Positions 35,301 through 63,309 of a stretch of 64,000 bases of DNA are shown here, piece after piece. The DNA lies in the IMG/VR virus record IMGVR_UViG_3300020460_001010, positions 30,641 to 94,640 of that record, one strand, 5' to 3'. Positions within the stretch are counted from its first letter, which is position 1, and the number at the start of each line of letters is the position of its first letter. Origin of the DNA: a virus. Its lineage: Duplodnaviria > Caudoviricetes. The notes under the pieces are model-generated. The model had not been told where the DNA came from, searched no databases, and saw only the letters and a program-made list of their open reading frames with translations. Made by a program: the position numbers and the translations under genes.

Positions 35301-38300
35301 CTTGGAAGATCCGTTGGAAGGTTTGGGTGACGGAATAGAAGCAATGTTTGATTCACTGGAGGATGTGGATATATCAATCGCACCCAACTTTTCAATAATT
35401 GGGGAGGGTATGAACTCTTTACTAGGTGCGTTTTCTGGTGGTGTATTGCTTGAATTGAATGAGGATGTGGAGGATATACTAGAGGGTCTAGGTTATGGTA
35501 TTGGTGAATTCTTTGAGGGTCTTGAAGATGTAGACCCGGCAATTGTTCCAGTGCTGGGTGCGATAGGACCAAGCATCTCTCAATTGTTGGTTTCACTTGG
35601 AACAGAAGGACTTGCCGAGTTTGATACGGACTTGGAGGATGTGTTTGAGGGACTTGGTGATGGAGTTACAGAGTTTATGAGTTCCATTGAAGGATTTGAT
35701 GCTGATCAAATACTTGCAATGTCTGGAGTCGGTGATGCAATTGCTAGGATTTTGGAGGGCATAGGTAGTGTTGGTGAGATTGACTTTGATGCGGATGATT
35801 TCGGGGATGTATTGGAATCTGTTGGTGAAGGTGTTGAATCATTGTTTGAACCTATGCGTGGTATGGATGATGATTTACTTGAAGCTGCAAGAAGTGTGGG
35901 TGGGGTATTATCTGGACTTTTTAGTAATCTCGGAACAATTGGAGAAGTGGGTGACGATTGGGATGATGTGTTTGAAGGATTTGGTGAGGGTGTTGAAGCA
36001 ATGTTTGACGAATTGAACGATATAGACCGAAAAGATTTAAAAATTGCCGTATTGGTTGGGGATGTTATGGCGGAGTTATTTTCTGCATTTGAGGGAATAA
36101 ATCTTACTGAAGACCTTGGTGATGCCGTGGAGACGTTGGGAGAGGGAATTTATGAATTGTTTGATGAGATTGAGGAAGTGGATGAGGAAGCAATGGACAT
36201 GGCATCAAGTGTAGGTCGTGCGGTTTCTAGGTTGTTTAATAATTTACCACTAGACGCAATGTCTAAGATAAATCCAGAAACCATAGGAGACCAACTTAAT
36301 GAGTTGGGATATGGTATCTATGAACTGTTTTATGAAATGGATGTAACTGACTTTGAAGAGGACTTGGAGTTGATGTCTAAGGTGGGACTTTCGATACAGA
36401 ATGTTGTACTTCCTATAATAAACACCGACTTGTCTGCAATACCGAAAGATGTTGGTTCTATTCTAAATGATTTGGGTGCGGGAATATATGATCTATTTGA
36501 TGAGATGGACGACTTGGGTGGTGAGGAGGAAACTTTAGATCTAATGAGTGGTATGGGAGGATTTGGCCAAATGCTTTCTGGAGTGGCTGCGATTTCGGAC
36601 ACAGGAGTAGATATGACTGCATTAAGTGAGATAGCAGATTCAATGAGAATGATAATCACTTCAATCTCGGAGATTTATGAAGAAATTGAGGATGAGGAGG
36701 ACTCGGCATTCTCGGGTATGTGGAATACGGCATCGGAGGGCAAGTCGCAGGACGCAATCGGGAAACTGGTGGAACGGATGCGAGGTCTCGGCGAGGGAGC
36801 CCGTGCGTTGATAGATGGATTTGGAGATTTGGACTTATTGAAAGAACTTGCTTCTATGAATGTAGGTGAGTTGATATCAGGAATAACAACTGGAATGTTA
36901 GGGTTGGTCCAACTGGTTAATCCTGAAACATTTGGTAGAGAGTTTGAAACAGAGGACGAGGCCTCGGATTATTTTGCACACCTTTCGGTACGGATGTCAT
37001 TGCTAGGTAAGGGTGTACAAAGTATAATTCAAGCATTTTCGGATTTGAACATATTGAGTGGGTTGGGTGAAATGGATTTGGATGGCATTATGTGGGATAT
37101 GCAATACGGCATCAGAAAGATGATGGACTTGGTTGACGTGTCCAGTTGGTGGAGTGATGAATCGGAAGAAGATGCAACCAAACGATTTGATGAAATGTCA
37201 AAACGAATGAAGTTTCTCGGAGAGGGAATGCAGAGCATTATTGGTGCGTTCTCCGACGTTGATACATTGAGTGCATTGGGAGAAATTGATTTTGATGGTA
37301 TTATGTCGGATATGCAATATGGGATAAAGTCTATGATGCGACTAACCGAGTGGGGTTGGTATGTTGGTGATGAGGAAGAGGAAACCGATTATTATGCTCA
37401 AATTTCACAAAGAATGAAGAGTCTCGGAGAGGGAATGCAGAGCATTATTGGTGCGTTCTCCGACGTTGATACGTTGAGTGCATTGGGAGAAATTGATTTC
37501 GAGGGTGTTATGGAGGATATGCGATGGGGTATAAAGTCTATGATGCGACTAACCGAGTGGGGTTGGTATGTCGGTGACGAGGAAGAAGAAACTGATTATT
37601 ATGCTCAAATTTCACAGAGAATGCAGAGTCTCGGAGAGGGGATGCAGAGCATTATTGGTGCGTTCTCCGACATTGATACCTTAAATACATTGAATAACAT
37701 TGATTTTGAGGGTATTATGGAAGATATGCAATATGGGATAAAGTCCATGATGCGACTGGCCGAATGGGGTTGGTATGTTGGTGATGAACAAGAGGAAACT
37801 GATTACTATGCTCAGATGTCAGAGAGAATGAAAAGTTTGGGAGAGGGAGTCGGAAGTATCATTGATGCATTTTCCGACATAGATACTTTGAGTGCTTTGG
37901 GTGATATTGACTTGGATGACATTATGGTTGATATGAAATATGGAATTAAGGGAATGATGCAACTAACCGAATGGGGTTGGTATGTTGGTGATGAACAAGA
38001 GGAAACTGATTACTATGCTCAAATGTCAGAGAGAATGAAAAGTTTGGGTGAAGGAGTTGGAAGCATTGTCGGTGCGTTCTCCGACATTGATACTATGAGT
38101 ACATTGAATGACATTGATTTTGATGGTGTTATGGCGGATATGAAATATGGGGTCAGGAAGATGATGGACTTGGTTGATGTAGGGACTTGGTGGTGGAGAC
38201 CTACGAAAGACGAAGATATAACCAAACGATTTGATGAATTGTCAAAACGAATGAAGGCTCTTGGAGAGGGTGTTGGAAGTATTATCGGTGGATTCTCCAA

Positions 38301-38919
38301 TATAAGTTCAATTGGTGATGTGGATGTTGAAGATGTAATGGAAGGAATGTCGGCAGGTATTGAAGAAATTATGGATACGATGAGTGACATAGACGAATCG
38401 GCATTATCAAAATTTGTAAAATTAGGTGAGGCATTGGCGACCATATCAATCTCAGGGACAGGAATTGATGTTGCATTTAATGGACTCAAGTCAATTGCAT
38501 CTCAAGAATTTGTGGATGGTCTATCCCGTGCAACCAGTGCGATATATGATTTTGCATACGCACTGCTTGCACTTAATAATGTAGATGATGTGGATGGAAT
38601 TATACAAGGTGAACCAACCACACCGACAAGTGGTATATTTGACGATGAGTCTAGTACAGGTACGGCAGATTTCGACCAACTTGCAAGGTATTCGGGAGGA
38701 GCATTTGGTAGAAGTGCTGGTGAGTCAAACACACCACTTGTTGTGGAGACATTGGCAAGCGTTGGTCAGTCCGGTGGATCGACCGATATGACGAATGTGG
38801 AGGCAAAGTTGGGTGAACTTATAGGTTTAATGAAATCTGGGGGTATTGCGGTTAATCTTGATGGTAGGAAGGTGCATAAGGGTCTTGCATCCTCAGTCGA
38901 ATCAAGTCCAATTTCATAG
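29329..38919 (+). CDS. tape measure protein (3196 aa)
   Basis: Position after tube and chaperone; coiled-coil N-terminus, long Ala/Gly/Leu hydrophobic block, acidic repeats, C-terminal VNLDGRKV. Confidence 0.88.
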   Translation: MPPDQDESENENIQQLIDILKKHNADLYQSLIKSVGATDANLISFIKEYKRKQKNQKADLGDILKATKGVNKHLEKDLDSFVDSFLNYVDKQKDANSKVISSTESISASLSKEISKIDSGVGGLAKSTNSALIKMQSLMANLAKEYTAMSRASAHVIKTATLDGTKVGGKSEPGGSLVAVSNISELASGVATATSSVNDLSAEYDSHEATATQAKEITLTNRNAAAETLGAAQADQMSATATADSEGNYIDMQKSVEVLKDGHKTAMQYMTDGTSHLARNIDMASDMALHQQKKFASESANAGANTGITSEDWLGAVTTTNDVDLSGLEELANKRTDIARQMQESAEKGTLSDDLPGIADDYVADLQKQSSAAREYLDARRDDIADYRSEVEELGAEHTDLTKRMVNMDKTSDEYKNAAEEAQLLQDTMEGLNREIGNYEAVGQISVTLDANLKGMETIEQARNNLEQFESQANGFKIQQGAFENLKGLLTTIQRGTRKVSNKELASAYKDAGMQNMPEYDQAVQNPIGLASLPENYHKLTDDLNRRQQEAYQNQQAALADAEKIHGEIASVNSTNIGYANRMVKRQEEQNDLAEEALGLAQKTQEIALEATGTGVWSDSIIKQTDAFHDKMLDIVGKVPLLGTAMRSALEEPMKKSKEKMQDIVVQGIGGISSKIAELHKQNGKDGILGPVSASEKFGIIKDGFKDMGKQITGLTSMFANLFSPAIIGAGILFVLIGLAISRFLELDKAAEDFRREVGLGRDQTAEIEDIARNVNVEFQKFGISLEHAFHAASALTNQFGTLVMATRENVEMVALLAENHAVSTANAAGALDVLSRVGDGTAESARSAMHLATGMAKAAGVPLDKVMEDVAGASDETLALIRGSTKELIHASVEARRLGVSLETLSGAASHMLDFESSIRSEMEASVFAGRHLSFAKSRQLAFEGDIVGMQKASLETIKQAGEWTELSYFQQKKLAEAAGMTVGEIGTQLTREKQLEALKHGTAEQQKMYNRYMQMQSDLQDGNNKSLEQQGEEMIKQELMQSKMNELKDRFRAIMTELGEKLLPLVEVGFSLIVPIVQVLFETAKLILMPFTVLSDIVRALTGDFSGLGERFGSFGDIAYTALGLIIGSVVLLNTKLLGLGPLIGKVGTGISGMFTGGKEALAGLTKGLGDFFNGGETGATSLGSKMRTMFDGLSKKVTGMFSSDDAVKGATKKAKDKIKSTVADKAKDVAEDVAQEKVTDSISSGTRGGSDVSKNSMPDVDTDKGGKGVTSFAEKFNSIDMKKILQGAAALLVLSGALWVSAKAFQEFGKVTWDGVLKGTAALGVLVGGLYAIGKVMDQNADKILKGSLAIAAIGAALLPAAYAFDMFGDVNWGGLLFGITALGAFTVAIMAIGAIMKSGVGAVALLAGAAAIAVLGVALVPAAYAMDIMSGAFATFTDALNTLEWESIAKVIALQVAFAGIGILAPAILIGAGAAMALGAAVGILAVGAWVLSDAIDTLGPAIVSLGDSAGSLIAFAGAVSLIGLMAPLVLLGAAALGVLGIAMIPVAAASILVGAGFSLMANAVSELDSVNLVGLVFELGLAFGLLGLMAPAIALGAVAMGIMTVALIPFSAALLVAGAGMALFGMGLEMTMDSLKDAPEAALGLIAFVGAVSMIALLAPLVIVGAVALGILGIGLALLAVPLLVVSAAMWVLGSAMKLMGDAIESMAESGAIGMIFGLGAAFIFLATILPAVILGALSMWIMTAALLPLSVALFTAGLGMKMLVDGLNSLESSGDKVKELTAVMYELGSNVLVFVLAAAGLYIIGSALLFFGIAASIASVGVALMGAALTVLQEPMLAIMDGLVSVIDSLTGLGEVGPGLISAAVGAFMLAGAILVLGAAMASYGIMSMFFAENDPIEQFIRLGKVGPEIEAVGNALGVFASAADGIGEMGDSLEGIADGLDVIFEVMSGVPDTMGSTMAMVGQGMKDLLSAFGPEFLAFSVVADLEDPLEGLGDGIEAMFDSLEDVDISIAPNFSIIGEGMNSLLGAFSGGVLLELNEDVEDILEGLGYGIGEFFEGLEDVDPAIVPVLGAIGPSISQLLVSLGTEGLAEFDTDLEDVFEGLGDGVTEFMSSIEGFDADQILAMSGVGDAIARILEGIGSVGEIDFDADDFGDVLESVGEGVESLFEPMRGMDDDLLEAARSVGGVLSGLFSNLGTIGEVGDDWDDVFEGFGEGVEAMFDELNDIDRKDLKIAVLVGDVMAELFSAFEGINLTEDLGDAVETLGEGIYELFDEIEEVDEEAMDMASSVGRAVSRLFNNLPLDAMSKINPETIGDQLNELGYGIYELFYEMDVTDFEEDLELMSKVGLSIQNVVLPIINTDLSAIPKDVGSILNDLGAGIYDLFDEMDDLGGEEETLDLMSGMGGFGQMLSGVAAISDTGVDMTALSEIADSMRMIITSISEIYEEIEDEEDSAFSGMWNTASEGKSQDAIGKLVERMRGLGEGARALIDGFGDLDLLKELASMNVGELISGITTGMLGLVQLVNPETFGREFETEDEASDYFAHLSVRMSLLGKGVQSIIQAFSDLNILSGLGEMDLDGIMWDMQYGIRKMMDLVDVSSWWSDESEEDATKRFDEMSKRMKFLGEGMQSIIGAFSDVDTLSALGEIDFDGIMSDMQYGIKSMMRLTEWGWYVGDEEEETDYYAQISQRMKSLGEGMQSIIGAFSDVDTLSALGEIDFEGVMEDMRWGIKSMMRLTEWGWYVGDEEEETDYYAQISQRMQSLGEGMQSIIGAFSDIDTLNTLNNIDFEGIMEDMQYGIKSMMRLAEWGWYVGDEQEETDYYAQMSERMKSLGEGVGSIIDAFSDIDTLSALGDIDLDDIMVDMKYGIKGMMQLTEWGWYVGDEQEETDYYAQMSERMKSLGEGVGSIVGAFSDIDTMSTLNDIDFDGVMADMKYGVRKMMDLVDVGTWWWRPTKDEDITKRFDELSKRMKALGEGVGSIIGGFSNISSIGDVDVEDVMEGMSAGIEEIMDTMSDIDESALSKFVKLGEALATISISGTGIDVAFNGLKSIASQEFVDGLSRATSAIYDFAYALLALNNVDDVDGIIQGEPTTPTSGIFDDESSTGTADFDQLARYSGGAFGRSAGESNTPLVVETLASVGQSGGSTDMTNVEAKLGELIGLMKSGGIAVNLDGRKVHKGLASSVESSPIS
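36787..38300 (+). repeat. tandem 207-216-nt (69-72 aa) repeats in the tape measure gene
   Basis: LG(E/K)G unit starts at 36787, 37003, 37216, 37423, 37630, 37837, 38044 and 38260. The four central units share EWGWYVGDE(E/Q)EETDYYAQ. Confidence 0.92.
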
Positions 38920-45982: not shown

Positions 45983-48085
45983 ATGGAAAATAAAAAAGAA
46001 TCTTCAAAAAACAAGTCGGATAAATCTAATAGTTTATCATCCATTATTAAACGGGAGAACAATGAGGCAGTTTCCGACTATCGTGTACAAAATTGGACAG
46101 GTACATTTTGGGAGTACCTTGAACTTGTGGAGGACAATCCGAAGATTGTTCGGAACGCATATCAACGTTTGTTTGATATGGTAACTTCACATGGAATTGA
46201 GGAAATTGAATATTGCAAGAGAAAGTATGTAAAGTATAATTTTTTCAAAGATCGGGGTGACATCTCCATTTATGGGTTAGAAGAAAATCTAATGGAACTG
46301 ATGGATACACTCAAAAGTGCAAGTAGACATTATGGACCCGAACGACGTGTATTGCTTCTACACGGTCCTGTGGGAAGTAGTAAGTCAACCATCGTCACGG
46401 CATTGAAGAAAGGACTTGAGGAATATTCACAAACCAACGAGGGTGCGTTGTATAGTTTTAGTTGGAAGGTTGTTGATAGTGAGGGTAATGAGCAAATCGT
46501 ACCCTGTCCCATGAATGAAGAACCATTGAAGTTGCTACCAGATGACGTTAGGTCGGAGATTATAGGCAAATTGAATGCTTCTATAAAAGAGTCAGACTAT
46601 CAAATTAGATTGGATGGTTCGTTGAATCCTGTAAATGAGTTTTACTATAAGAAGTTGATGGAGCAGTATGGTGGGGATTATCGCAAGGTTCTGGACCATG
46701 TAGTGGTTCGTAGAGTTATAGTATCCGAAAAGAATCGGGTGGGTATTGGAACTTTTCAACCCAAAGACGAGAAGTCTCAAGACGCAACTGAACTTACAGG
46801 TGACATCAACTACCGCAAGTTGGCAGAGTACGGAAGTGAAAGTGACCCACGGGCGTTTGACTTTGACGGAGAGTTTTTGGTATCAAATCGTGGACTCATT
46901 GAGTTTCAAGAAATCCTTAAGTTGCAGACCGAATTCTTGTATGACCTACTTGGTGCAACCCAAGAGCATCGTGTTAAACCACGTCGTTTCAACCAAGTAC
47001 CTATTGACGAAGTTATTCTTGGACATACGAATAATGCTGAATTTGAAAAGTTGAAGAACAACAAGTTCATGGAAGCATTGCGTGATAGAACCATCAAGGT
47101 GGACATTCCATATTTGCTGAAGATTTCAGAAGAACAAAAGATTTATGATCACTTCTATAACAACAAGTCGGTCAACAAGCACATTGCACCACACACTACG
47201 TATTTGGCTGCATTGTTCTCTGTTGTAAGTCGTTTGGAAGAAAGTTCCAAACACGACATGAGCATCATTCAAAAGGCAAAACTTTACAATGGTCAGAGTG
47301 TTCATGGATTTACTGACGAACACGTCAAGGAAATGCAAGAAGAGTCACCAAACGAAGGATTGTATGGTGGAGTTTCTGCACGATTCATACAGAACCAGTT
47401 TTCCAATGCAATCGTTAATCCAAGAATGGGTGCAAAGAGTTTGAATCCGTTTATGTTGTTTGCACAAATCCGTGAAGGATTGAAAAGTTATAGTGGATTT
47501 CAAAGTGAAGACCAAAAGAAGACCATGATGGAACGTCTTGAACTTGTAGAAAAGGAATACGATAGAATTGTGAAACGAGAAGTACAACAAGCACTTAGTA
47601 GCAGTGAAGAAGCAATAAAGGCACTCTGCACAAACTACATTGATAACATCGTGGCATACATTCAAGACGAAAAGGTTAAGAACCCCGTCACCGGTAAGGA
47701 TGAGCAAGCAAACGAACAACTTATGCGTAGCATTGAAGAAAAGATTGGAATCTCCGAAGGAATGAAGGATGATTTCCGCAGAGAAATCATGAACTACATG
47801 GGTGGCCTTGCCGCCAAGGGCAAAGAGTTTAAGTATGATTCCAACGAGCAACTTTACAAGGCACTTGAAAAGAAGTTGTTTGAAGATACCAAGGATAGCA
47901 TCAAGTTGTCTGCTCTTGCTCAAGATACCGCAACTGTTGTTGATAAGGAACTTCTTGAAAAGATTGATGCGTTGAAGCAACGTCTTATCACTTCGTTTGG
48001 ATACGATGAAGATAGTGCATCGGATGTTCTCACCTATGTAGGTAGTATTTTTGCCCGTGGTGACGTTGACGATGACGAAGATTAA
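45983..48085 (+). CDS. prkA: PrkA/YeaG family AAA+ serine protein kinase/ATPase
   Basis: RNAYQR, Walker A LLHGPVGSSKS, CPMNEEPL, PKDEKSQD, SESDPRAF, NRGLIEFQE, EALRDR and GVSARF. Confidence 0.93.
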   Translation: MENKKESSKNKSDKSNSLSSIIKRENNEAVSDYRVQNWTGTFWEYLELVEDNPKIVRNAYQRLFDMVTSHGIEEIEYCKRKYVKYNFFKDRGDISIYGLEENLMELMDTLKSASRHYGPERRVLLLHGPVGSSKSTIVTALKKGLEEYSQTNEGALYSFSWKVVDSEGNEQIVPCPMNEEPLKLLPDDVRSEIIGKLNASIKESDYQIRLDGSLNPVNEFYYKKLMEQYGGDYRKVLDHVVVRRVIVSEKNRVGIGTFQPKDEKSQDATELTGDINYRKLAEYGSESDPRAFDFDGEFLVSNRGLIEFQEILKLQTEFLYDLLGATQEHRVKPRRFNQVPIDEVILGHTNNAEFEKLKNNKFMEALRDRTIKVDIPYLLKISEEQKIYDHFYNNKSVNKHIAPHTTYLAALFSVVSRLEESSKHDMSIIQKAKLYNGQSVHGFTDEHVKEMQEESPNEGLYGGVSARFIQNQFSNAIVNPRMGAKSLNPFMLFAQIREGLKSYSGFQSEDQKKTMMERLELVEKEYDRIVKREVQQALSSSEEAIKALCTNYIDNIVAYIQDEKVKNPVTGKDEQANEQLMRSIEEKIGISEGMKDDFRREIMNYMGGLAAKGKEFKYDSNEQLYKALEKKLFEDTKDSIKLSALAQDTATVVDKELLEKIDALKQRLITSFGYDEDSASDVLTYVGSIFARGDVDDDED

Positions 48086-48106
48086 TAATCAACGGACATT
48101 CACAGT

Positions 48107-49255
48107 ATGCCATCACGCAGAGTCAGAGAAGACCACAAAGAATATAGAGACATCGTCAAAGGAAATGTTGACGAAAAACTCAAGAAGCACATAAAAGGTG
48201 GTCAACGAATAACACGAAGAGGAAAAGACTTTGTTGTTGTTCGTGTTCCACATGTAGAACTTCCAAGTTTTCGTTACGGAAAACCTTCCAATGGAGAGGG
48301 AGTCGGTAACGGAGAAGTTGGAGTGGGTGATGAAGTAGGTGATGGACCTCCACAGGATGGAAGTGGCAATGAACCTGGAGAGGGTGGAAGTGGTGATGGT
48401 GAACACGAAATAGATGTTGGAATTAGCATGGATGCGTATTTTGACATGATAGGTGATGAACTTAAGTTACCAAATCTACAACCAAAAGAAAATGGTGATT
48501 TGGTGAAGGAAAAGATTAAGTGGAATCGCATCGCAAAGGTAGGCAACAATAGTTTGCTTCACAAAAGACGAACACTCAAGAATGCGTTTAAACGGATCAT
48601 CTCCGTAGGTGAGTTTGATCCATTGGACGTATCCAATGTATATCCGATTAAGGAAGACAAAGAATTTAGAAGTTGGAGTTCGGTTGAAGTACCTGATACA
48701 AACGCTGCTATCTTTTTTGTTGCGGACATATCCGCAAGTATGGATACTGAAAAACGTTCGTTAATTCGTGAACTCTGTTGGTATTTGGAAAACTGGATTG
48801 AGAGATTCTACCAAGAGACCCAGAAGAAATATATAGTACATGATCATGTTGCACAAGAAGTAGACCAAGAGAAATTTTATAAATATAGGAGTGGGGGAGG
48901 AACGCAAATCAGCAGTGCGTTTGAACTTGTAAATGATGTTATAGAAAAGGCATTTCCTCTCAATGAATGGAATATCTATGTATTTTACTTGAGTGATGGA
49001 GAAAATTTTGGTGATGACAACGAACTCTGCGTGGAACATCTTAAGAAGATGCAAACTTATACCAACTTGATTGGGATTACGGAAGTCAAGGCAGTTCGTA
49101 GTTGGGCAACATTTTTACCTCACATTCGGAAACGGATTGAAGATAAGACATTAGATTTTAACAAGATTTCAACTGCATCTATGGAAAGTCAGAGTGATGT
49201 GCTAAAAACACTTCAGTCGTTACTAACACCTGAGGATGAAGAAGTACCTTTTTGA
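48107..49255 (+). CDS. yeaH: YeaH/YhbH (DUF444) vWA-domain protein
   Basis: Gly-rich linker, LKLPNL, MIDAS elements DISASM, SGGGTQIS and LSDGEN; WNIY. Confidence 0.9.
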   Translation: MPSRRVREDHKEYRDIVKGNVDEKLKKHIKGGQRITRRGKDFVVVRVPHVELPSFRYGKPSNGEGVGNGEVGVGDEVGDGPPQDGSGNEPGEGGSGDGEHEIDVGISMDAYFDMIGDELKLPNLQPKENGDLVKEKIKWNRIAKVGNNSLLHKRRTLKNAFKRIISVGEFDPLDVSNVYPIKEDKEFRSWSSVEVPDTNAAIFFVADISASMDTEKRSLIRELCWYLENWIERFYQETQKKYIVHDHVAQEVDQEKFYKYRSGGGTQISSAFELVNDVIEKAFPLNEWNIYVFYLSDGENFGDDNELCVEHLKKMQTYTNLIGITEVKAVRSWATFLPHIRKRIEDKTLDFNKISTASMESQSDVLKTLQSLLTPEDEEVPF

Positions 49256-49257
49256 AT

Positions 49258-50823
49258 ATGGGAATTGCGTGTGAAATTGATAGTCTGAACTATGGAGTTT
49301 GTCCAGAGTTGGCTGCCCTTATACCAGATGTACTGAAGGCGTGTTACGACAATGGACTTGATCCATATCCGTTGTGTATTGAAGAATTTGATGCAGACGA
49401 AATTGTAGAGATTGCGGCGTATGGTGGATTTCCTGTTCGTTATCCTCATTTTAATTTCGGACAACAATTTGAGCAGTTACATCATCAGTATCATTCTGGT
49501 ATGGGTAAGATTTACGAAATGGTTGTAAATACTGATCCAACTTATATGTACCTTCAACGAAACAATCCTATCGTTGATAATCTTACTGTTGTTGCACACG
49601 CAACTGCACATAGTGATTTCTTTAAGAACAACATTATGTTTAAGCATACGAATCGTAACATGATGAATGTGATGGCAAATCATAGTGATAAGATTCGTAT
49701 GTACATGGATCGTTTTGGTCGCAAAAAAGTGAAGGACTTTTTGAATGCAGCTCTTGCTATTGATAGTTTGATTGACCCTTCTTTGTGTTATCGTGAAAGT
49801 AATCTGAAAAAAGCATCCAAGTTTAATTTTGAAGACAGAAAACCAAGAGAGCACGTATCTCGGTTGAACACCAAGGAGTATATGGAGAAGTATGTTAATC
49901 CATCCCACTATATTGAGAAACAACGGAGGGAACGTGAAGAAAGACAAAAGTTAGCAGAAAATAAATTTCCTCTTAACCCAGAACGAGATATTATGTTGAT
50001 GATTATTAACCATGTTCGTCTTGAACCTTGGCAACAAAATATTCTTAGTATGATTCGTGATGAGTCTATTTACTATCGTCCACAGGGAATGACCAAGGTT
50101 CTCAATGAGGGTTGGGCAAGTTATTGGGACTCCTATATAATGGCAAGTTGCAACTTTGCAGGAGACGAAGGAATTTTTGATTATGCGAAGCACCACGCCG
50201 GAGTTCTCGGTGGTAAATATAACATGAACAATCCATATAAACTTGGAAACACTTTATTACGTGACATTGAAGACCGTTGGAATAAAGGCAAGTTTGGTAA
50301 AGAGTATGAAAATTGCGACAACGGAGAAGAAAAAAGATATTGGAATAAAAATCTTGGTCTTGGACGAGAGAAACTTTATGAGGTTCGTGAGAACTACAAC
50401 GATGTTACATTTTTAAATGAATTTTTTACCAAAGACTTTTGCGAAAAGCATAAATATTTCGAATATGCACTTGATAAGGATACCAATAAATATGTGGTGG
50501 TTAGCAAGGACTATAAGAAAATAAAAAGTAAACTTATAGACCGTCATGTTAATATGGGAATGCCTGTAATTTACATGGAGAACATGAAATACAAAAACAA
50601 TGAAATTTTACTTAGACATGAATTTGAAGGTAGACCCCTTGATGTAAAATACGCAACCGGAACAATGGCATATTTACATGAGATTATCAAAAAACCTATT
50701 AATATTTTGACCAGTGATGTTCTTGAGGAGGGATATGGTAGGGAGAAAGAAACGGTAGAAGTTGAGGTTAGGTATCGTTACAATAATGGTGAGATGAAAC
50801 GATACGAGGGTAGTAAAGTTTAA
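49258..50823 (+). CDS. spoVR: SpoVR/YcgB family protein
   Basis: GFPVRYPH, KIYEMVVNTDP, VAHATAHSDFFKNN, TKVLNEGWASYW and NPYKLG. An alternative TTG start lies at 49252. Confidence 0.92.
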   Translation: MGIACEIDSLNYGVCPELAALIPDVLKACYDNGLDPYPLCIEEFDADEIVEIAAYGGFPVRYPHFNFGQQFEQLHHQYHSGMGKIYEMVVNTDPTYMYLQRNNPIVDNLTVVAHATAHSDFFKNNIMFKHTNRNMMNVMANHSDKIRMYMDRFGRKKVKDFLNAALAIDSLIDPSLCYRESNLKKASKFNFEDRKPREHVSRLNTKEYMEKYVNPSHYIEKQRREREERQKLAENKFPLNPERDIMLMIINHVRLEPWQQNILSMIRDESIYYRPQGMTKVLNEGWASYWDSYIMASCNFAGDEGIFDYAKHHAGVLGGKYNMNNPYKLGNTLLRDIEDRWNKGKFGKEYENCDNGEEKRYWNKNLGLGREKLYEVRENYNDVTFLNEFFTKDFCEKHKYFEYALDKDTNKYVVVSKDYKKIKSKLIDRHVNMGMPVIYMENMKYKNNEILLRHEFEGRPLDVKYATGTMAYLHEIIKKPINILTSDVLEEGYGREKETVEVEVRYRYNNGEMKRYEGSKV

Positions 50824-56713: not shown

Positions 56714-59188
56714 ATGAAAGTAAAGAAGAGAAATGGTCGGTTAGAAGAGTTTAACGTTGATAAAATCAACAAATGTGCAGAACGTGCGTGTAAAAATTTA
56801 GAAAACGTAAGTGCAAGTGAAGTGTTGATTGATGCCAAAATCAAGTTGTACGACAAAGTTACCACCATTGAGATAGACAAATCACTTATTATGAGTGCGA
56901 GGTCTAAAATTGAGTTTGAACCCAATTATGCTTATGTGGCCGCACGAATCCTTCTTAACACAATTTACAAAGAAGTATTTGGAGAAGGAGTAGATAGTGA
57001 TGCGTTTGAACTTCAGTATCGTAAAAGTTTTATTACAAATATGCGTAGATTAGTCCGAGAAGAAATCTTGGACGAACAACTTCTTGAATGTTTTGATTTG
57101 CGTGATTTGAGTGCAAGATTGAATATTGAACGGGAAAAAGATTGGAAGTATCTTGGTATTCAAACGATATATGATCGTTATCTTCTTCACATAGACAATC
57201 GCAGAATGGAAACACCACAAGCAATGTGGATGCGTATTGCTATGGGTCTTGCGTTAAATGAAAAACCAGAAGACCGACAAGAATATGCTTTGAAGTTTTA
57301 TGAAACATTAAGTCAGTTTGATGTAGTGAGTTCAACTCCAACTTTGTTTAATAGTGGAACGACTCATAGTCAATTGAGTAGTTGCTATTTAAATACATTT
57401 GATGATTCCATTGATGGGATTTTTGATGGACTCTGGCAAGAAGCAAGAAAGAGCAAGTTTGCAGGGGGACTTGGGTTCGACATCACCAACTTTCGTTCAC
57501 GGGGCAGTTTTATCAAGGGTACGAACGGGACAAATCAAGGTCCCGTTTATTTTTGGAAACTTTACAACGATATGCTTGTTGCAGTAAATCAGGGTGGAAA
57601 AAGAAAAGGTGCGGGATGTGCATACTTGGAAACATGGCACGCTGACATTGAAGATTTCCTTGCATTGAGAAAAACAGTCGGTGACGATAGAATGCGTTGC
57701 CACGACATGAATACTGCAAATTGGATTCCAGATTTGTTCATGGAGCAAGTTGAAAAGGATGGAGATTGGCATCTGTTTAGTCCAGATGAAGTTCCAGAAC
57801 TACATGAAACTTTTGGTGCGGAGTTTAAGAAGCACTATAAGAAGTATGTCAAGAAGGGTAACGCAGGAGAACTTAGGGTGTTCAAGACTGTTTCTGCAAA
57901 GGGTTTGTGGAAGAAGATGCTTAAGAGTTTGTTTGAAACAGGACATCCGTGGATTACGTTTAAAGATCCATCAAACCTTCGTTATAGCAACCAGCACGTT
58001 GGTGCGGTTCATAGCAGTAATCTTTGCACGGAAATTCTTCTTCATACCATACCAACTATTCATAATGACGATGGAACGCGTTCGGTAAAGGAATATGGAG
58101 AAACCGCAACTTGCAATCTTGCGAGTATCAATTTGAAACGTCATGTTGGTGTAGACAAGCATGGTGAAAAGTTTATCGACTATGAGAAGTTGGAACGAAG
58201 CACCAAGATGGCCATGCGTATGTTGGACAATGTTATTGACCTCAATTACTATCCAACTGAGGAAGCAAGAAAGAGCAACATGACTCATCGTCCAGTTGGA
58301 TTGGGTACAATGGGTTGGCATGATATGTTCTATGAGTTTAATATAAATTACGGAAGTGAAGATGCGATTCGCATTAGTGACGAAATATATGAGAATGTTT
58401 CCTATTTCGCAATTGAGTCATCTTCCGACATGGCACTTGAAAAAGAAACATATGAATCATATTCGGGAAGTCTATGGAGCAAGGGAACATTCCCAATTGA
58501 TACCTACAAAGAACTCATGGAACTTCGTGGTACTGAGCAGAAAATTACTCCACGGAAAGATTGGGACAAACTAAAAGCAAAAGTTGCCAAACAAGGAATG
58601 CGTAATTCAAATACGATGGCAATTGCACCGACTGCAACAATCAGTTACATCGCAGGTTGCTCACAAAGCATTGAACCCAATTTTGGAGTGATTTTTGTAT
58701 ACTCCACGTTGAGTGGTGAATTCACAATGATGAACGAATACTTTGTCAACGACATGAAGGCAGAGGGAATTTGGACAAAGGAACTTGCCAACCTCGTAAA
58801 AAGTGTAGACGGAGATTTGCACAAACTCAATGGTTCTATTCCACAATGGATTAAAGAAAAATACGTAACCGCATTTCACCAAGACCAATTTAAGTTGATT
58901 GATTGTGCAGCTGCTCGTCAAAAGTGGATTGACCAAGGACAGAGTTTGAATCTTTACAATGACAAAAGCAGTATGAAGTTTTTGAATGACATTTACTTTC
59001 ATGCTTGGAGAAGTGGTTTGAAGACAACTTACTATTTGCGAAATCTGGCTGCAAGTGCAGTTGAGAAGTCTACGGGAGTCAATGTAGAAGAACCCACGGA
59101 TACATCAGACTCACAAGAAACCGCAGAACCTTCTTTGTGTAGTTTAGAAGCAAAAATGCGTGGAGAAATCTGCGAAAGTTGTCAGTGA
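56714..59188 (+). CDS. nrdA: ribonucleotide reductase class I alpha subunit with ATP cone (NrdAz-like)
   Basis: VKKRNG ATP cone, TPTLFN, SSCYL, SNLCTEI, CNLAS, APTATIS, TTYYLR and C-terminal CESCQ. Confidence 0.97.
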   Translation: MKVKKRNGRLEEFNVDKINKCAERACKNLENVSASEVLIDAKIKLYDKVTTIEIDKSLIMSARSKIEFEPNYAYVAARILLNTIYKEVFGEGVDSDAFELQYRKSFITNMRRLVREEILDEQLLECFDLRDLSARLNIEREKDWKYLGIQTIYDRYLLHIDNRRMETPQAMWMRIAMGLALNEKPEDRQEYALKFYETLSQFDVVSSTPTLFNSGTTHSQLSSCYLNTFDDSIDGIFDGLWQEARKSKFAGGLGFDITNFRSRGSFIKGTNGTNQGPVYFWKLYNDMLVAVNQGGKRKGAGCAYLETWHADIEDFLALRKTVGDDRMRCHDMNTANWIPDLFMEQVEKDGDWHLFSPDEVPELHETFGAEFKKHYKKYVKKGNAGELRVFKTVSAKGLWKKMLKSLFETGHPWITFKDPSNLRYSNQHVGAVHSSNLCTEILLHTIPTIHNDDGTRSVKEYGETATCNLASINLKRHVGVDKHGEKFIDYEKLERSTKMAMRMLDNVIDLNYYPTEEARKSNMTHRPVGLGTMGWHDMFYEFNINYGSEDAIRISDEIYENVSYFAIESSSDMALEKETYESYSGSLWSKGTFPIDTYKELMELRGTEQKITPRKDWDKLKAKVAKQGMRNSNTMAIAPTATISYIAGCSQSIEPNFGVIFVYSTLSGEFTMMNEYFVNDMKAEGIWTKELANLVKSVDGDLHKLNGSIPQWIKEKYVTAFHQDQFKLIDCAAARQKWIDQGQSLNLYNDKSSMKFLNDIYFHAWRSGLKTTYYLRNLAASAVEKSTGVNVEEPTDTSDSQETAEPSLCSLEAKMRGEICESCQ

Positions 59189-59209
59189 ATTAAAATAATA
59201 TCCCCAAAC

Positions 59210-59233
59210 CATGCCGAAACTGCACTTGGCATG
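59210..59233 (+). other. intergenic hairpin after nrdA
   Basis: CATGCCGA...TTGGCATG inverted repeat with no strong U-tract. Confidence 0.4.
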
Positions 59234-59273
59234 ATATATATTAGTATTAACTAATTTAACGAGGTATATGCTA

Positions 59274-60272
59274 ATGAAACTATTTGTAATCGCAATTTTA
59301 AGTATGGCAGTGACTATGGTTACTGTAAGTGGTGAAGGAAAAACAATGAGAGAAGTTGCGGATCATTTACAAGACATCTCAGTTACCATCAAGTCTGAGG
59401 GTAGATATAGCAAATCAGAAGGTTCTGGTGCTATGATTATCCGTGAGGTGGATGGACAAAAGGTAACGTTCGTTTGGACAGCCGCACACGTAATTGATAA
59501 CCTTCGTTCAGTTAGAACTGTTATCAATGAAAAAGGTCAACCAGTTAAGTTGGTAGAATTTGAAGACCCCAAGATTGTTAAGGAACTTGTTGAGAAAGGT
59601 CGTAGAGTCGGTGAAATGAAGATGGATGCGAGAGTTATCAAGTATTCAGACGCAGATGACGGAGAAGACTTGGCACTTCTTATGGTTCGTGCAAGAGATT
59701 ATGCAAAGAGTGGTGCTAAGTTTAAGATACAATCTGCTAAGAAGGACGATGACAACATTGTACCAATCGGAACTCGTTTGTTTCACGTAGGGTCTTTGCT
59801 TGGTCAGATGGGTGCAAACTCAATGACAACCGGTATTATTTCACAAGTAGGCAGAACTCTGGGAAAAGTTGAATATGACCAAACTACCGTTACTGCATTT
59901 CCAGGCAGTTCCGGAGGAGGTGTATATCTAACCGATGGCCGTTACATGGGTATGTTGGTAAGAGGTGCGGGTGAAGGTTTTAATCTGATTGTTCCAGTTC
60001 GTAGAATGGTACGTTGGGCAGAGAAGAATGACATTATGTGGGCAATTGACCCAAGTGTTGAAATGCCATCTCTCGATGAGATTAACGAAATTCCAGTAGA
60101 GGATGCGGGTGTCGGAGGAAAGAAAAAGTCCGATGGTGACGATGATAAGTCACTTCGTTCACTTCCGTATCTTATTAAAGTCACTCCAATCAACGAAACA
60201 CTTGATGCGAGTGAGGAGTTGGATGTTCGTCCCACAGATGGAACAATTTCCCCAAAACTCGAGCTTAGATAA
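59274..60272 (+). CDS. secreted trypsin-like (S1) serine protease
   Basis: Signal peptide MKLFVIAILSMAVTMVTVSG; triad motifs TAAHV, DLALL and PGSSGGG. GAGGT spacing favours ATG 59274 over 59268. Confidence 0.88.
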   Translation: MKLFVIAILSMAVTMVTVSGEGKTMREVADHLQDISVTIKSEGRYSKSEGSGAMIIREVDGQKVTFVWTAAHVIDNLRSVRTVINEKGQPVKLVEFEDPKIVKELVEKGRRVGEMKMDARVIKYSDADDGEDLALLMVRARDYAKSGAKFKIQSAKKDDDNIVPIGTRLFHVGSLLGQMGANSMTTGIISQVGRTLGKVEYDQTTVTAFPGSSGGGVYLTDGRYMGMLVRGAGEGFNLIVPVRRMVRWAEKNDIMWAIDPSVEMPSLDEINEIPVEDAGVGGKKKSDGDDDKSLRSLPYLIKVTPINETLDASEELDVRPTDGTISPKLELR

Positions 60273-60818
60273 TTGGATTATCTGAGATTTACGCAAAAGG
60301 TTATATCAACAATAATATTATTTATATCGTCCTCGGTGCTATCGTGTGCCGGGGACGATGGGTTTATAAAGGAAACGGATTCCAAAGAACCGAAGAAAGT
60401 TGAGGACACTCCAAAGACTTCGGATGATAAACAAGAATCCAAGGTGGATTGGACAATTGTAGTTGACCCACGACTACAAGCATCGTATGAGAAGTACGAA
60501 CGAGAGAAACGCATTCGTGCACAATTCTCAAAAGACATTGCAAGATTTGCCACATTGAAAAAGAAAACTTTTGACATGGTTGCATTGATTCATAAGTTTG
60601 ACTTGAAAGGTCCTCATTATGATCCGACAAAGTTTGATGAACTCACAAAATGGATGAGGATATATGAGAAGGAGATTTTGATTGCAATGGACAATTATGA
60701 TGCAGCCGCCTACGTTTTCTTTTTTGAAGAATTTGCAAAGCTCACAATACAACGAGCGGGTATGATAAATCCTGACTGCAAACTTAAAGATTGCGAATGT
60801 CGCAATTATAAAGATTAA
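60273..60818 (+). CDS. putative exported protein or lipoprotein
   Basis: Hydrophobic ISTIILFISSSVLS-C; C-terminal CKLKDCEC; the TTG start is uncertain. Confidence 0.55.
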   Translation: MDYLRFTQKVISTIILFISSSVLSCAGDDGFIKETDSKEPKKVEDTPKTSDDKQESKVDWTIVVDPRLQASYEKYEREKRIRAQFSKDIARFATLKKKTFDMVALIHKFDLKGPHYDPTKFDELTKWMRIYEKEILIAMDNYDAAAYVFFFEEFAKLTIQRAGMINPDCKLKDCECRNYKD

Positions 60819-60835
60819 ATTTTATATTTATAAAA

Positions 60836-60934
60836 ATGGAATGTTTGAAAAAAATAATCTGTAAAATTAAATGTTTTTTTGTAAAATGTTGCAAAGACAA
60901 TAGTTGTGAGTGTGCTTGTCACGACAAGAAATAA
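60836..60934 (+). CDS. 32-aa Cys-rich peptide (8 Cys, 1 His)
   Basis: MECLKKIICKIKCFFVKCCKDNSCECACHDKK; ATG lies 4 nt after TATATTTAT (60823-60831). Confidence 0.6.
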   Translation: MECLKKIICKIKCFFVKCCKDNSCECACHDKK

Positions 60935-60943
60935 TTTAATTAC

Positions 60944-60972
60944 TTTACACATACAGTAAATTGTGGTATATT
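60944..60972 (+). promoter_or_regulatory. sigma70-type promoter inside the repeat (second copy at 61863-61891)
   Basis: TTTACA, N17, TATATT, with a TGn extended -10. Confidence 0.6.
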
Positions 60973-61041
60973 ACTTCAATTAATAAAGTTGAAGGAATAG
61001 ACCGATGAAATTTCAAGGAACTGCTATTTGGTGAAGAGGAC

Positions 61042-61716
61042 ATGAGTGAGGAACATACATGGCTTCGGAAATCTGCATGGAATGAGAAGGATGAATACTA
61101 TACTCCCTCCATTTTAGTCAAGGCAATTATTCCCTATCTTAAATGCAATCCTAATACCATTGACCTACCTCACAAAGACATTACTATTTGGTGTCCCTTT
61201 GATACCGAAAATAGTGAGTTTGTTTTGTGCTTACAAGAAGCAGGTTTCAATGTGATTTACAGTCATTTGTGGACGGGACAGGACTTCTTTGAGTATGAAC
61301 CCGAAGAAGAATATCATTACATCGTTTCTAACCCACCATTCACACTCAAATTGAAAGTATTTGAAAGATTATTTGAGTTAGAAAGACCATTTGCTATGGT
61401 CATGGGGCTCCCAATTCTGAACTACCAGGAAGTCGGCTCGGTTTTCCTCAATCATCAACAAAATGACCGCAATCTTCAATTACTGATAGTGGACAAGAAA
61501 GTTTCCTTCGATGGGAATACGGCTTCGTTCAACAATTCGTATTTTTGTTGGAATGTACTTGAAAACGACATTGTATTCCACCATTTAGAGAACAACAATT
61601 CTCGGAAACACTATGTTCCAAGTAGAATGTTTCAAGATGCAGAAAAGGAGACAAAGACAACACCCTTGACACCAAGATCTCTGGTAACCGATACTTTCTT
61701 CCGGAAGGTTGAATGA
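61042..61716 (+). CDS. putative N6-adenine methyltransferase
   Basis: DEYYTP, IWCPFD, GQDFF and IVSNPPF; GAGGA RBS. Confidence 0.8.
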   Translation: MSEEHTWLRKSAWNEKDEYYTPSILVKAIIPYLKCNPNTIDLPHKDITIWCPFDTENSEFVLCLQEAGFNVIYSHLWTGQDFFEYEPEEEYHYIVSNPPFTLKLKVFERLFELERPFAMVMGLPILNYQEVGSVFLNHQQNDRNLQLLIVDKKVSFDGNTASFNNSYFCWNVLENDIVFHHLENNNSRKHYVPSRMFQDAEKETKTTPLTPRSLVTDTFFRKVE

Positions 61717-61853
61717 TAATAGGAGAAATCCTTTCTTTGTTCACTCCATCCGGAATGGAATGTTTGAAAAAAATAATCTGTAAAATTAAATGTTTTTTTG
61801 TAAAATGTTGCAAAGACAATAGTTGTGAGTGTGCTTGTCACGACAAGAAATAA
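61713..61853 (+). CDS. second copy of the Cys-rich peptide with a 14-aa N-terminal extension
   Basis: ATGA overlap with the methyltransferase stop; reads MIIGEILSLFTPSG-MECLKK...; internal ATG at 61755. Confidence 0.45.
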   Translation: MIIGEILSLFTPSGMECLKKIICKIKCFFVKCCKDNSCECACHDKK

Positions 61854-61892
61854 TTTAATTACTTTACACATACAGTAAATTGTGGTATATTA
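61754..61892 (+). repeat. 139-bp direct repeat, copy 2
   Basis: Identical to 60835-60973. Confidence 0.95.
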
Positions 61893-61919
61893 TTTTCCTA
61901 AATATAAGGAGAACTATAT

Positions 61920-62270
61920 ATGAAAAAATTATTGATATTACTATGTTTGGCCACACTTGTATCGTGTGGGATTAAAGATAAGTTTTTAAATTCAAGTACA
62001 GGTGGTTTAGGAGTACCGAAGCAACCAAGTGAAGTCGTGGTACTTGATGATAATGGAACGACACAGAACTCAGATGGGTTACCCACTGAAATTGCCGGCC
62101 ACAAAGTTACTTATTCGGATATGAACACTACAACTGACGATGCATCTGAAGCAAGTCCCGATGAGGTCGAGACTTCGTTTAATTGGTATTATTTGATTTT
62201 GGTCGGCATTCTTTTGATTGTTGCTTTTTTGGTTTATAGGTTAAAAAAGCAGAACATGATTTCGGAGTGA
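61920..62270 (+). CDS. lipoprotein with a C-terminal transmembrane helix (u-spanin-like topology)
   Basis: AAGGAG RBS; signal MKKLLILLCLATLVS-C; C-terminal WYYLILVGILLIVAFLVY-RLKK. Confidence 0.75.
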   Translation: MKKLLILLCLATLVSCGIKDKFLNSSTGGLGVPKQPSEVVVLDDNGTTQNSDGLPTEIAGHKVTYSDMNTTTDDASEASPDEVETSFNWYYLILVGILLIVAFLVYRLKKQNMISE

Positions 62271-62301
62271 ATTAAAGTAACTGGGGGTTATATATATTAG
62301 T

Positions 62302-63309
62302 ATGAAAACGGGTGAACTACTGGGAAAAGAACTGGAAGGTGTGAATCAAATTCTTCCGCACAAGCATAAGTGGGCATGGGACTTGTACGAACAAGGTGTA
62401 AAAAATAACTGGGTACCAACTGACGTACCCATGACAAAGGATGTCCAGCATTGGAAGTCTCCACCTGAAGATTCGTTGAGTGAGGATGAACGATTGGTTA
62501 TCAAGAGATGTCTTGGTTTCTTTGCCGGAAGTGAAAGTTTGGTGGCAAACAATTTGATGACATTATCCAAATATATTACCGACCCAGAATGTAGACAATA
62601 TATGGCACGACAAATGTATGAAGAGTGTTTACACAATCATACAATTGTTTACATCTGCGATAGTTTGGATTTGGATGTTGGTGAAGTATATGAGGCATAT
62701 CAAACGGTACCATCCATTAAGGCAAAGGATGATTTCCTCATGGAAGTTACAGGTGGTTTAAATGAATCAGAGATAAACACCTCCACACAAAAAGGAAGAA
62801 AGGAACTTTACAAGGCCGCATTCACATATTGGGTTGTGTGTGAGGGAACATTCTTTTTCAGTGGTTTCGCAATGTTGCTTGCATTGAGTGACAAGATTCC
62901 TGGTATCGCAGAACAAATTCAATATACACTTCGTGATGAAAGTATTCACATTAAGTTTGGAACTACTTTACTCAACAAACTCCGTGAGCAGTATCCTGAT
63001 ATTATGACCGATAAGTTTGAAACGGAACTTACCGAGGTTTTGAAACGAGCAGTTGACCTTGAAATCGAATATGCACAAGACGTATTACCAAGAGGAATTT
63101 TGGGGTTAAACTCTGAAATGTTTGTGGATTATATGCAGTTCATCGCAAACCGCAGATTGGAAAATTTGGATATGAAGTTTCGTTATGATAGTGATACGAA
63201 TCCGTTTCCGTGGTTAAGTGAGGTTATTGATATTCGTAAGCAGAAGAACTTTTTTGAAACAAGAGTCATTGATTATCAAGATGAATCGGCATTAGTTGAC
63301 GATTTTTAA
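62302..63309 (+). CDS. nrdB: ribonucleotide reductase beta subunit with class Ic-like signatures
   Basis: NNWVPTDV, FFAGSESLV, EECLH, EGTFFFSGF, RDESIH and KNFFETRVIDY. Confidence 0.95.
   Translation: MKTGELLGKELEGVNQILPHKHKWAWDLYEQGVKNNWVPTDVPMTKDVQHWKSPPEDSLSEDERLVIKRCLGFFAGSESLVANNLMTLSKYITDPECRQYMARQMYEECLHNHTIVYICDSLDLDVGEVYEAYQTVPSIKAKDDFLMEVTGGLNESEINTSTQKGRKELYKAAFTYWVVCEGTFFFSGFAMLLALSDKIPGIAEQIQYTLRDESIHIKFGTTLLNKLREQYPDIMTDKFETELTEVLKRAVDLEIEYAQDVLPRGILGLNSEMFVDYMQFIANRRLENLDMKFRYDSDTNPFPWLSEVIDIRKQKNFFETRVIDYQDESALVDDF

Follow-up and report, generated by a model that had tools for sequence, protein, structure and literature searches.

We consider it likely that nrdB and nrdA of this uncultured, T4-like phage form a working aerobic class I ribonucleotide reductase (RNR) that supplies dNTPs during infection, with a β subunit from an Ile/Val 'class Ic-like' NrdBz lineage whose oxidant would be stored on metal, most likely as Mn(IV)/Fe(III). 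This reading is drawn from the sequences and from analogy with the Chlamydia trachomatis (Ct) enzyme. The subclasses of class I RNR are defined by the way in which β stores its oxidant, and class Ic is anchored experimentally by the chlamydial enzyme only. As judged from its residues, the phage NrdB is a further member of a known lineage that has already been flagged and is biochemically unexplored. New here are an argument for function from genomes in which the Ile-type enzyme is the sole RNR, a tally of Asp–Tyr against Glu–non-Tyr pairing and an inventory of the residues near the metals that are specific to the lineage.

The nrdB gene and its active site

An uninterrupted open reading frame at 62302–63309 of the window (the 64 000-nucleotide stretch of phage DNA that was analysed) encodes an R2/NrdB protein of 335 residues. 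It lies on the plus strand, as do all features with coordinates in nrdB and nrdA given below. Pfam family PF00268 (Ribonuc_red_sm) matches residues 15–301 with an E-value of 1.1e-72 and 245.2 bits, compared with a cut-off of 33.6. By this match and the PDB matches described below, NrdB is a class I RNR β subunit of the ferritin-like R2 family, and it is assigned to the Ile/Val 'Ic-like' lineage. The 94.6 kb phage record contains no other R2 gene.

All six metal ligands are intact in the aligned sequence, in the order E/E/H/E/E/H with Glu first. The first ligand is Glu78 (codon GAA, 62533–62535), which lies in the motif FFAGSE, replaces the Asp of classes Ia and Ib and aligns with Ct Glu89. The second and third ligands are provided by the ExxH motif Glu108-Cys-Leu-His111 (62623–62634; Ct Glu120 and His123). 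Directly before it stands Glu107, the second-sphere Glu listed for NrdBzc (PMC6370689 Table 4). The fourth ligand, Glu181 (62842–62844; Ct Glu193), follows the clade-specific Cys180. The segment Y208-T-L-R-D212-E213-S-I-H216 (62923–62949, positions checked) contains the equivalent of Ct Tyr222, the second-sphere Asp and the fifth and sixth ligands, its residues Tyr208, Asp212, Glu213 and His216 pairing with Ct Tyr222, Asp226, Glu227 and His230.

The position of the radical tyrosine (Escherichia coli Tyr122, Ct Phe127) is occupied by Ile115 (codon ATT, 62644–62646) within the motif E108-C-L-H111-N-H-T-I115-V-Y117. Both substitutions, Glu at the first ligand and Ile at the radical site, had been read in a first-pass annotation of this DNA and are borne out by the alignment and by inspection of the codons. 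Its wider claim of class Ic signatures also holds: NrdB is a Chlamydia-type NrdBz β whose first ligand is Glu and whose radical site is occupied by an aliphatic residue that cannot be oxidised. The residues that make up the class Ic sequence pattern are Glu78, Ile115, the remaining ligands Glu108, His111, Glu181, Glu213 and His216, and the second-sphere residues Glu107 and Asp212.

The residues associated with radical translocation (Trp37, Tyr208 and Tyr325) are all present. Trp37 (62410–62412) aligns in 1SYY with Ct Trp51, the conserved Trp of the electron/radical transfer path, and is kept in nearly all representatives clustered at 50% identity. The sequence KNFFETRVIDY, earlier taken for the C-terminus, does occur, but ten more residues (QDESALVDDF) follow it, and Tyr325 is the conserved pathway tyrosine (Ct Tyr338, E. 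coli Tyr356). Tyr325 and this tail span 63274–63309. By analogy with class I RNRs in general, the acidic, Phe-ended tail should dock on NrdA. Its residues Leu331, Asp333, Asp334 and Phe335 are invariant in the Ile/Val lineage.

Comparison with R2 proteins of known structure

The best PDB matches to NrdB are the C. trachomatis R2c entries 1SYY and 4D8F and the F127Y mutant 2ANI (E-value about 2e-112 and about 378 bits over residues 13–331; 378.7 bits for 1SYY). The next is 6Y2N, a second R2 with Phe at the site (1e-98). All remaining R2 entries score 118 bits or less, with E. coli R2 at about 48 bits, the class Id entries 6CWO and 6CWP at only 52–59 bits and the R2lox entries 7QBK and 3EE4 at 42 bits or less. 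Identity to 1SYY is about 53%, as counted by eye on the printed alignment. The alignment runs without a gap from the first-ligand helix to the ExxH helix, and this, together with the E-value of 2e-112 to a solved structure, fixes the homology. Residues pair one to one, such that Ile115 lies opposite Phe127 in 1SYY and opposite Tyr127 in the mutant 2ANI.

Compared with the C. trachomatis class Ic R2 (1SYY, 4D8F/4D8G and 4M1H/4M1I) and 6Y2N, the phage protein has the same fold and the same length. It shares with the chlamydial enzyme the E/E/H/E/E/H ligand set beginning with Glu, the second-sphere Glu and Asp, the equivalents of Trp51, Tyr222, Tyr338 and Phe197, an NrdAz-type partner and a radical site without tyrosine. 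The differences are the Ile in place of Phe127, a set of residues adjoining the ligands in the Ile/Val lineage (Asn112, Val116, Cys119, Cys180 and Thr209), a longer, acidic tail ending in DDF, and an α subunit with a single ATP-cone. The chlamydial α subunit has three.

Three other assignments were considered and rejected. Class Id NrdBi (Flavobacterium johnsoniae and Leeuwenhoekiella; Mn2(IV/III)) has Glu as first ligand in common with NrdB, and its oxidant is metal-centred, replacing the tyrosyl radical, as we infer for the phage protein. NrdBi nevertheless retains the Tyr and has Cys or Ser before the second ligand, where NrdB has Ile115 and Glu107, and similarity to it is weak (58.6 bits for 6CWO versus 378.7 for 1SYY). 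In class Ie (NrdFe) three carboxylate ligands are lost and a Tyr-derived DOPA radical is used; NrdB has six ligands and a site without Tyr. R2lox proteins have no C-terminal pathway Tyr, carry a Tyr–Val cross-link site and are unpaired with NrdA; NrdB has Tyr325, a docking tail and linkage to nrdA, and matches R2lox with at most 42 bits.

Ile and Val at the radical site

An Ile at this position had implicitly been presented as a rarity. This part of the annotation does not stand, as Ile or Val is found throughout the relatives and is already noted in the literature. The 120 closest proteins, 70–94% identical to NrdB, were drawn from a collection of 5.8 billion proteins, and two of them are fragments without the site region. 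In the other 118, the site residue is Ile or Val without exception and the pattern EC(S)LHN.T[I/V]V. is kept in all. NrdB is also matched by 318 IMG/VR contigs; the 80 viral relatives taken from these all combine Glu as first ligand with Val (56) or Ile (24).

On the cellular side, NrdB of this lineage occurs at 18 loci in bacterial genomes. The closest cellular sequences come from Alphaproteobacteria MAGs (72–75% identity, ECLHNHTIVY), and those from Cellvibrionales and Pseudomonadales MAGs are 60% identical and read ...TVV. at the site. Taking bacteria and viruses together, Ile or Val accompanies Glu in 215 of the 215 lineage members collected with a full ligand set. By these counts, the Ile of this NrdB is more than chance and no oddity of one phage: viruses and bacteria of a large lineage have Ile or Val there as a rule. 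A collection of deposited phages contains no protein with 60% or more identity to NrdB. The nearest enzymes there are of the Asp/Tyr type (Acinetobacter phage MD-2021a and Pseudomonas phage Peetri) and of the Glu/Phe type (Aquificae Joseph's Coat Spring virus).

The first ligand and the site residue go together across the wider family. An exhaustive search without profiles was run against 1.84 billion cluster representatives (50% identity). Among its best 150 matches, Asp as first ligand is accompanied by Tyr at the site in 46 representatives. Glu is accompanied by Phe in 30, Val in nine, Ile in five and Leu in four (48 in total), and by Tyr in six. This pairing of Asp with Tyr and of Glu with a non-Tyr residue matches the published signatures of class Ia versus Ic (PMC6370689 Table 4; PMC4118035).

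The Ile/Val lineage further has invariant residues of its own beside the ligands: Asn112 after the ligand His, Val116, Cys119, Cys180 before the ligand Glu181, and Thr209 beside the Tyr222 equivalent. Cys180 is present in 214 of 215 Ile/Val sequences, and the other groups have Met, Leu or Phe there.

Many NrdBz-like cluster representatives (P0123, P0124, P0127, P0129, P0131–P0133 and others) are 610–760 residues long and match the query in two stretches. Both features suggest that inteins interrupt the R2 gene; judging by the break points, they occupy more than one site.

Phylogeny and published relatives

A quick maximum-likelihood tree was calculated from 69 full-length, intein-free sequences, a set in which C. 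trachomatis R2 itself is absent; its cluster is probably represented by P0125, which contains HTHTF. All 25 Ile/Val sequences fall on one side of a branch with an SH-aLRT value of 94, and inside this group Ile and Val have been exchanged several times. The phage NrdB is placed among viral and alphaproteobacterial sequences. The Chlamydia-type Phe sequences (P0125 and L016 from Rhodomicrobium) lie beside Asp/Tyr sequences of NrdBza type, with weak supports. When the Ile/Val and Chlamydia-type sequences are forced into one clade, the AU test gives p = 0.19, and a single clade is thus not rejected. The first-pass annotation had proposed to place NrdB in an RNR phylogeny, and the outcome is divided: the Ile/Val sequences group together, and a joint clade with the chlamydial type is simply compatible with the data.

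Since the Chlamydia-type Phe sequences lie nearer to Asp/Tyr NrdBza than to the Ile/Val group in this tree, the Tyr-less state may have arisen more than once. Such a placement, with its weak supports, would fit a passage of PMC3824934 that, citing Lundin 2010, reports R2c as polyphyletic.

Aliphatic residues at the Tyr site have been described before. In work based on RNRdb, subclass Ic (NrdBzc) has Phe, Leu or Val there (PMC6370689, citing Lundin 2009), and a passage of PMC3824934 credits Högbom 2010 with Leu, Ile or Val at this site of R2c. The phage NrdB shows what defines NrdBzc in RNRdb, namely Glu as first ligand, a non-Tyr hydrophobic residue at the site and the second-sphere Glu and Asp, although the tree sets its lineage apart from the Chlamydia-type Phe sequences without a single clade being rejected.

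The closest published counterpart is found in a February 2026 preprint on viral RNRs from GOV 2.0, which describes a marine 'subclass Ic-like' clade of 269 sequences, or 1.44% of viral RNRs (PMC12918982). This clade is closest to NrdAz, Ile or Val takes the place of the radical Tyr in its β subunits, and it has no RNRdb reference sequence; Ile and Val are deemed atypical of the references (PMC12918982). The phage gene agrees with every trait stated for the clade, as judged from the clade description: viral origin, an α subunit near NrdAz and an Ile/Val β without the radical Tyr. The preprint finds the 'Ic-like' group to be anti-correlated with predicted iron (its Figure 6A), and its discussion sees no pattern due to a single trace metal (PMC12918982).

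Probable cofactor and proposed mechanism

With about 53% identity to the C. trachomatis enzyme, Mn(IV)/Fe(III) is the most likely cofactor of the phage NrdB. Sequence data do not allow the metals to be identified (PMC4118035), and the 'Ic-like' lineage has no biochemically characterised member (PMC12918982). Following the chlamydial enzyme (PMC8463856), O2 or H2O2 would oxidise an Mn(II)/Fe(II) cluster to Mn(IV)/Fe(III). The oxidising equivalent would then be kept on the metal cluster without a tyrosyl radical, with Mn in site 1 next to Ile115. Upon binding of α, the oxidant would be passed via Trp37 and Tyr325 to the Tyr pair of NrdA and on to the catalytic Cys. In this scheme Ile115 would merely fill the hydrophobic pocket that is occupied by Phe in Chlamydia and pack against site 1. 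A packing role fits the free interchange of Ile and Val in the lineage and the occurrence of Phe or Leu elsewhere. That the phage gains from sparing iron or from tolerance to oxidants, as the annotation envisaged, is speculation by analogy.

The alternative that survives best keeps the scaffold and the radical-free principle and changes the cofactor, to Mn2(IV/III) as in class Id, to diiron, or to a centre assembled by another route, such that the lineage would be a separate subclass and not class Ic proper. We regard this as unlikely. Class Id likewise couples a Glu first ligand to a metal-centred oxidant (PMC8463856; PMC6370689 Table 4). The second-sphere residues Asn112, Cys180, Thr209 and Cys119 are invariant and peculiar to the Ile/Val lineage, and they could alter metal selection or assembly; with Val116 added, these residues are the reason why another cofactor has to be allowed for. 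In the tree, the Chlamydia-type Phe sequences fall outside the Ile/Val group, and the 2026 preprint keeps 'Ic-like' apart and leaves a mixed, another or no cofactor possible (PMC12918982). Against this, the residue before the second ligand is Glu107 as in class Ic and not the Cys or Ser of class Id (PMC6370689 Table 4), the Tyr kept in class Id is absent from the lineage, the chlamydial enzyme is by far the closest solved structure, with 6CWO and 6CWP far behind, and the AU test leaves the Ile/Val and Chlamydia-type sequences unseparated. That the lineage amounts to a biochemically distinct class I subclass with a different metal pair, oxidant or assembly route, going beyond a class Ic enzyme with a smaller plug residue, strikes us as a doubtful proposition, with roughly the standing of an outside chance. 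On that view, such a subclass would be the sole RNR of many marine phages and of some streamlined Alphaproteobacteria.

Either outcome would be of consequence, as the lineage is common: it comprises 215 sequences with a full ligand set, 318 IMG/VR contigs and 269 GOV 2.0 sequences, and for at least two alphaproteobacteria with small genomes it provides the only RNR. If the cofactor is Mn/Fe, the range of this chemistry would widen beyond an intracellular pathogen to phages and bacteria that abound in aquatic habitats, and would give a molecular handle on the trace-metal cost of viral replication. If it is another, the Ile/Val lineage would be a new subclass. For enzymology, the whole lineage makes a good target, and the value of the phage gene is that of one more clean, full-length representative which, with its partner α, is suited to expression.

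Function of the Ile-type enzyme

In two alphaproteobacterial genomes, one of which is a single chromosome of 1.65 Mb, we find one RNR α barrel each (PF02867, which also detects class II RNR) and one R2 each. The R2 is of the Ile type in both and lies beside the lone α, and class III NrdD was not found in either genome. As the sole RNR of these genomes, the Ile-type enzyme must be catalytically competent, unless these bacteria obtain their dNTPs wholly by salvage of deoxynucleosides.

These genomes provide a strong argument against a protein that does not generate a radical at all, be it an inactive partner β' (compare yeast Rnr4 and apicomplexan R2_e2) or an R2lox-type oxidase. Such proteins are also without the radical tyrosine, and R2_e2 of Theileria and Babesia likewise has Ile or Val at the site (PMC3824934). 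In NrdB, however, the six ligands are intact and the docking tail and the C-terminal Tyr are conserved, the latter being absent from R2lox and R2_e2 (PMC3824934). The phage record holds no second R2 gene, linkage to nrdA is seen in 92 loci, and in the two bacterial genomes the Ile type is both the only R2 and the only RNR. We therefore hold a role of this kind to be very improbable.

Equally hard to credit is an ordinary tyrosyl-radical enzyme with its radical on another Tyr such as Tyr117, two residues past the site on the same helix, since Tyr117 pairs with Tyr129 of the radical-free Chlamydia enzyme and not with the radical site, is replaced by Thr or His in 42 of the 80 viral relatives (...TVVT, ...TIVT, ...IVH), and belongs to a protein whose Glu first ligand accompanies non-Tyr residues across the family; the objection held in reserve by the annotation, that Tyr117 might occupy the radical site, fails on the same pairing.

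A Cellvibrionales MAG (G003, the genome of locus L011) has two RNR α genes that both appear split in two (C4:155586–157248 and C5:1006936–1008578), with an in-frame TAA in one fragment per gene. A frameshift, an insertion or misassembly could account for this. The second α has no adjoining R2 and may be of class II.

The NrdA partner and the phage

The nrdA gene (56714–59188) encodes an α subunit of 824 residues with one ATP-cone. Pfam matches cover the ATP-cone, the all-α domain (Ribonuc_red_lgN) and the barrel (Ribonuc_red_lgC, E-value 3e-182). The protein is intact and retains the catalytic NLCTE motif, the tyrosine pair in YYLR and, at its C-terminus, CESC. The two NrdAz-type motifs that had been pointed out earlier are both confirmed, GKRKGAGCAYLETWH at residue 295 and HDMNTANWIPDLFM at residue 330. 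The best PDB match is 5IM3 (4e-242), a bacterial class I α chain of 963 residues which we take to be the NrdAz-type α of Pseudomonas aeruginosa. NrdA is 57–63% identical to the α subunits beside Ile/Val β subunits and 48% identical to those beside NrdBz of the Phe or Tyr type. From its motifs and these identities, NrdA is the NrdAz-like cognate α of the phage NrdB.

In the phage, nrdA lies 3.1 kb upstream of nrdB, and a homologous α is found upstream of β in 92 related loci. The distance is about 2.1 kb in the closest viral relatives (L020–L040), and the two genes are immediate neighbours in most other loci, both viral and bacterial (for example L043 and L002). The space between them seems to be a hotspot for inserted genes.

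The gap at 59189–62301 contains four open reading frames of at least 100 codons. Right after nrdA, 59268–60272 encodes a 334-residue trypsin-like serine peptidase (Pfam Trypsin_2, E-value 2e-10) with a hydrophobic N-terminus that resembles a signal peptide. A direct repeat of 151 nucleotides (60835–60985 and 61754–61904, 97% identical, 919 nucleotides from start to start) brackets an open reading frame at 61042–61716, the 224-residue product of which has no match in the Pfam search. This arrangement resembles a cassette that entered through duplication or recombination. Immediately upstream of nrdB, 61920–62270 encodes 116 residues, with an N-terminus that resembles that of a lipoprotein (LVSCG) and a hydrophobic helix at the C-terminal end, and a search for a family match to it gave none.

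The window belongs to a phage record that is 94.6 kb long in IMG/VR, where it is estimated to be 47% complete and labelled 'provirus'. All large open reading frames of the window are on one strand. PHROG matches in the window include terminase, portal, major head protein, adaptor and tail sheath. The structural genes are followed by a replication module (single-strand DNA-binding protein, UvsX-like recombinase, exonuclease and DnaB-like helicase) that ends directly upstream of nrdA. By this gene content the phage is a genuine myophage. Its major capsid protein shares only 52% identity with the counterpart in Flavobacterium phage vB_FspM_immuto and 48% with the one in Microcystis phage Mel-JY01, and is more distantly related to those of T4-like phages.

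Three consecutive genes at 45983–50823 match PHROGs of unknown function (phrog_22605, phrog_19072 and phrog_35217); the gene that matches phrog_19072 also has a weaker match to a 'sporulation protein'. Downstream of the tail genes, a single open reading frame at 29329–38919 encodes 3196 residues. Within it, GC content (0.43) and GC skew (0.33) reach their highest values in the region at 32–36 kb, where the AT skew is negative, which sets this region apart from the rest of the window.
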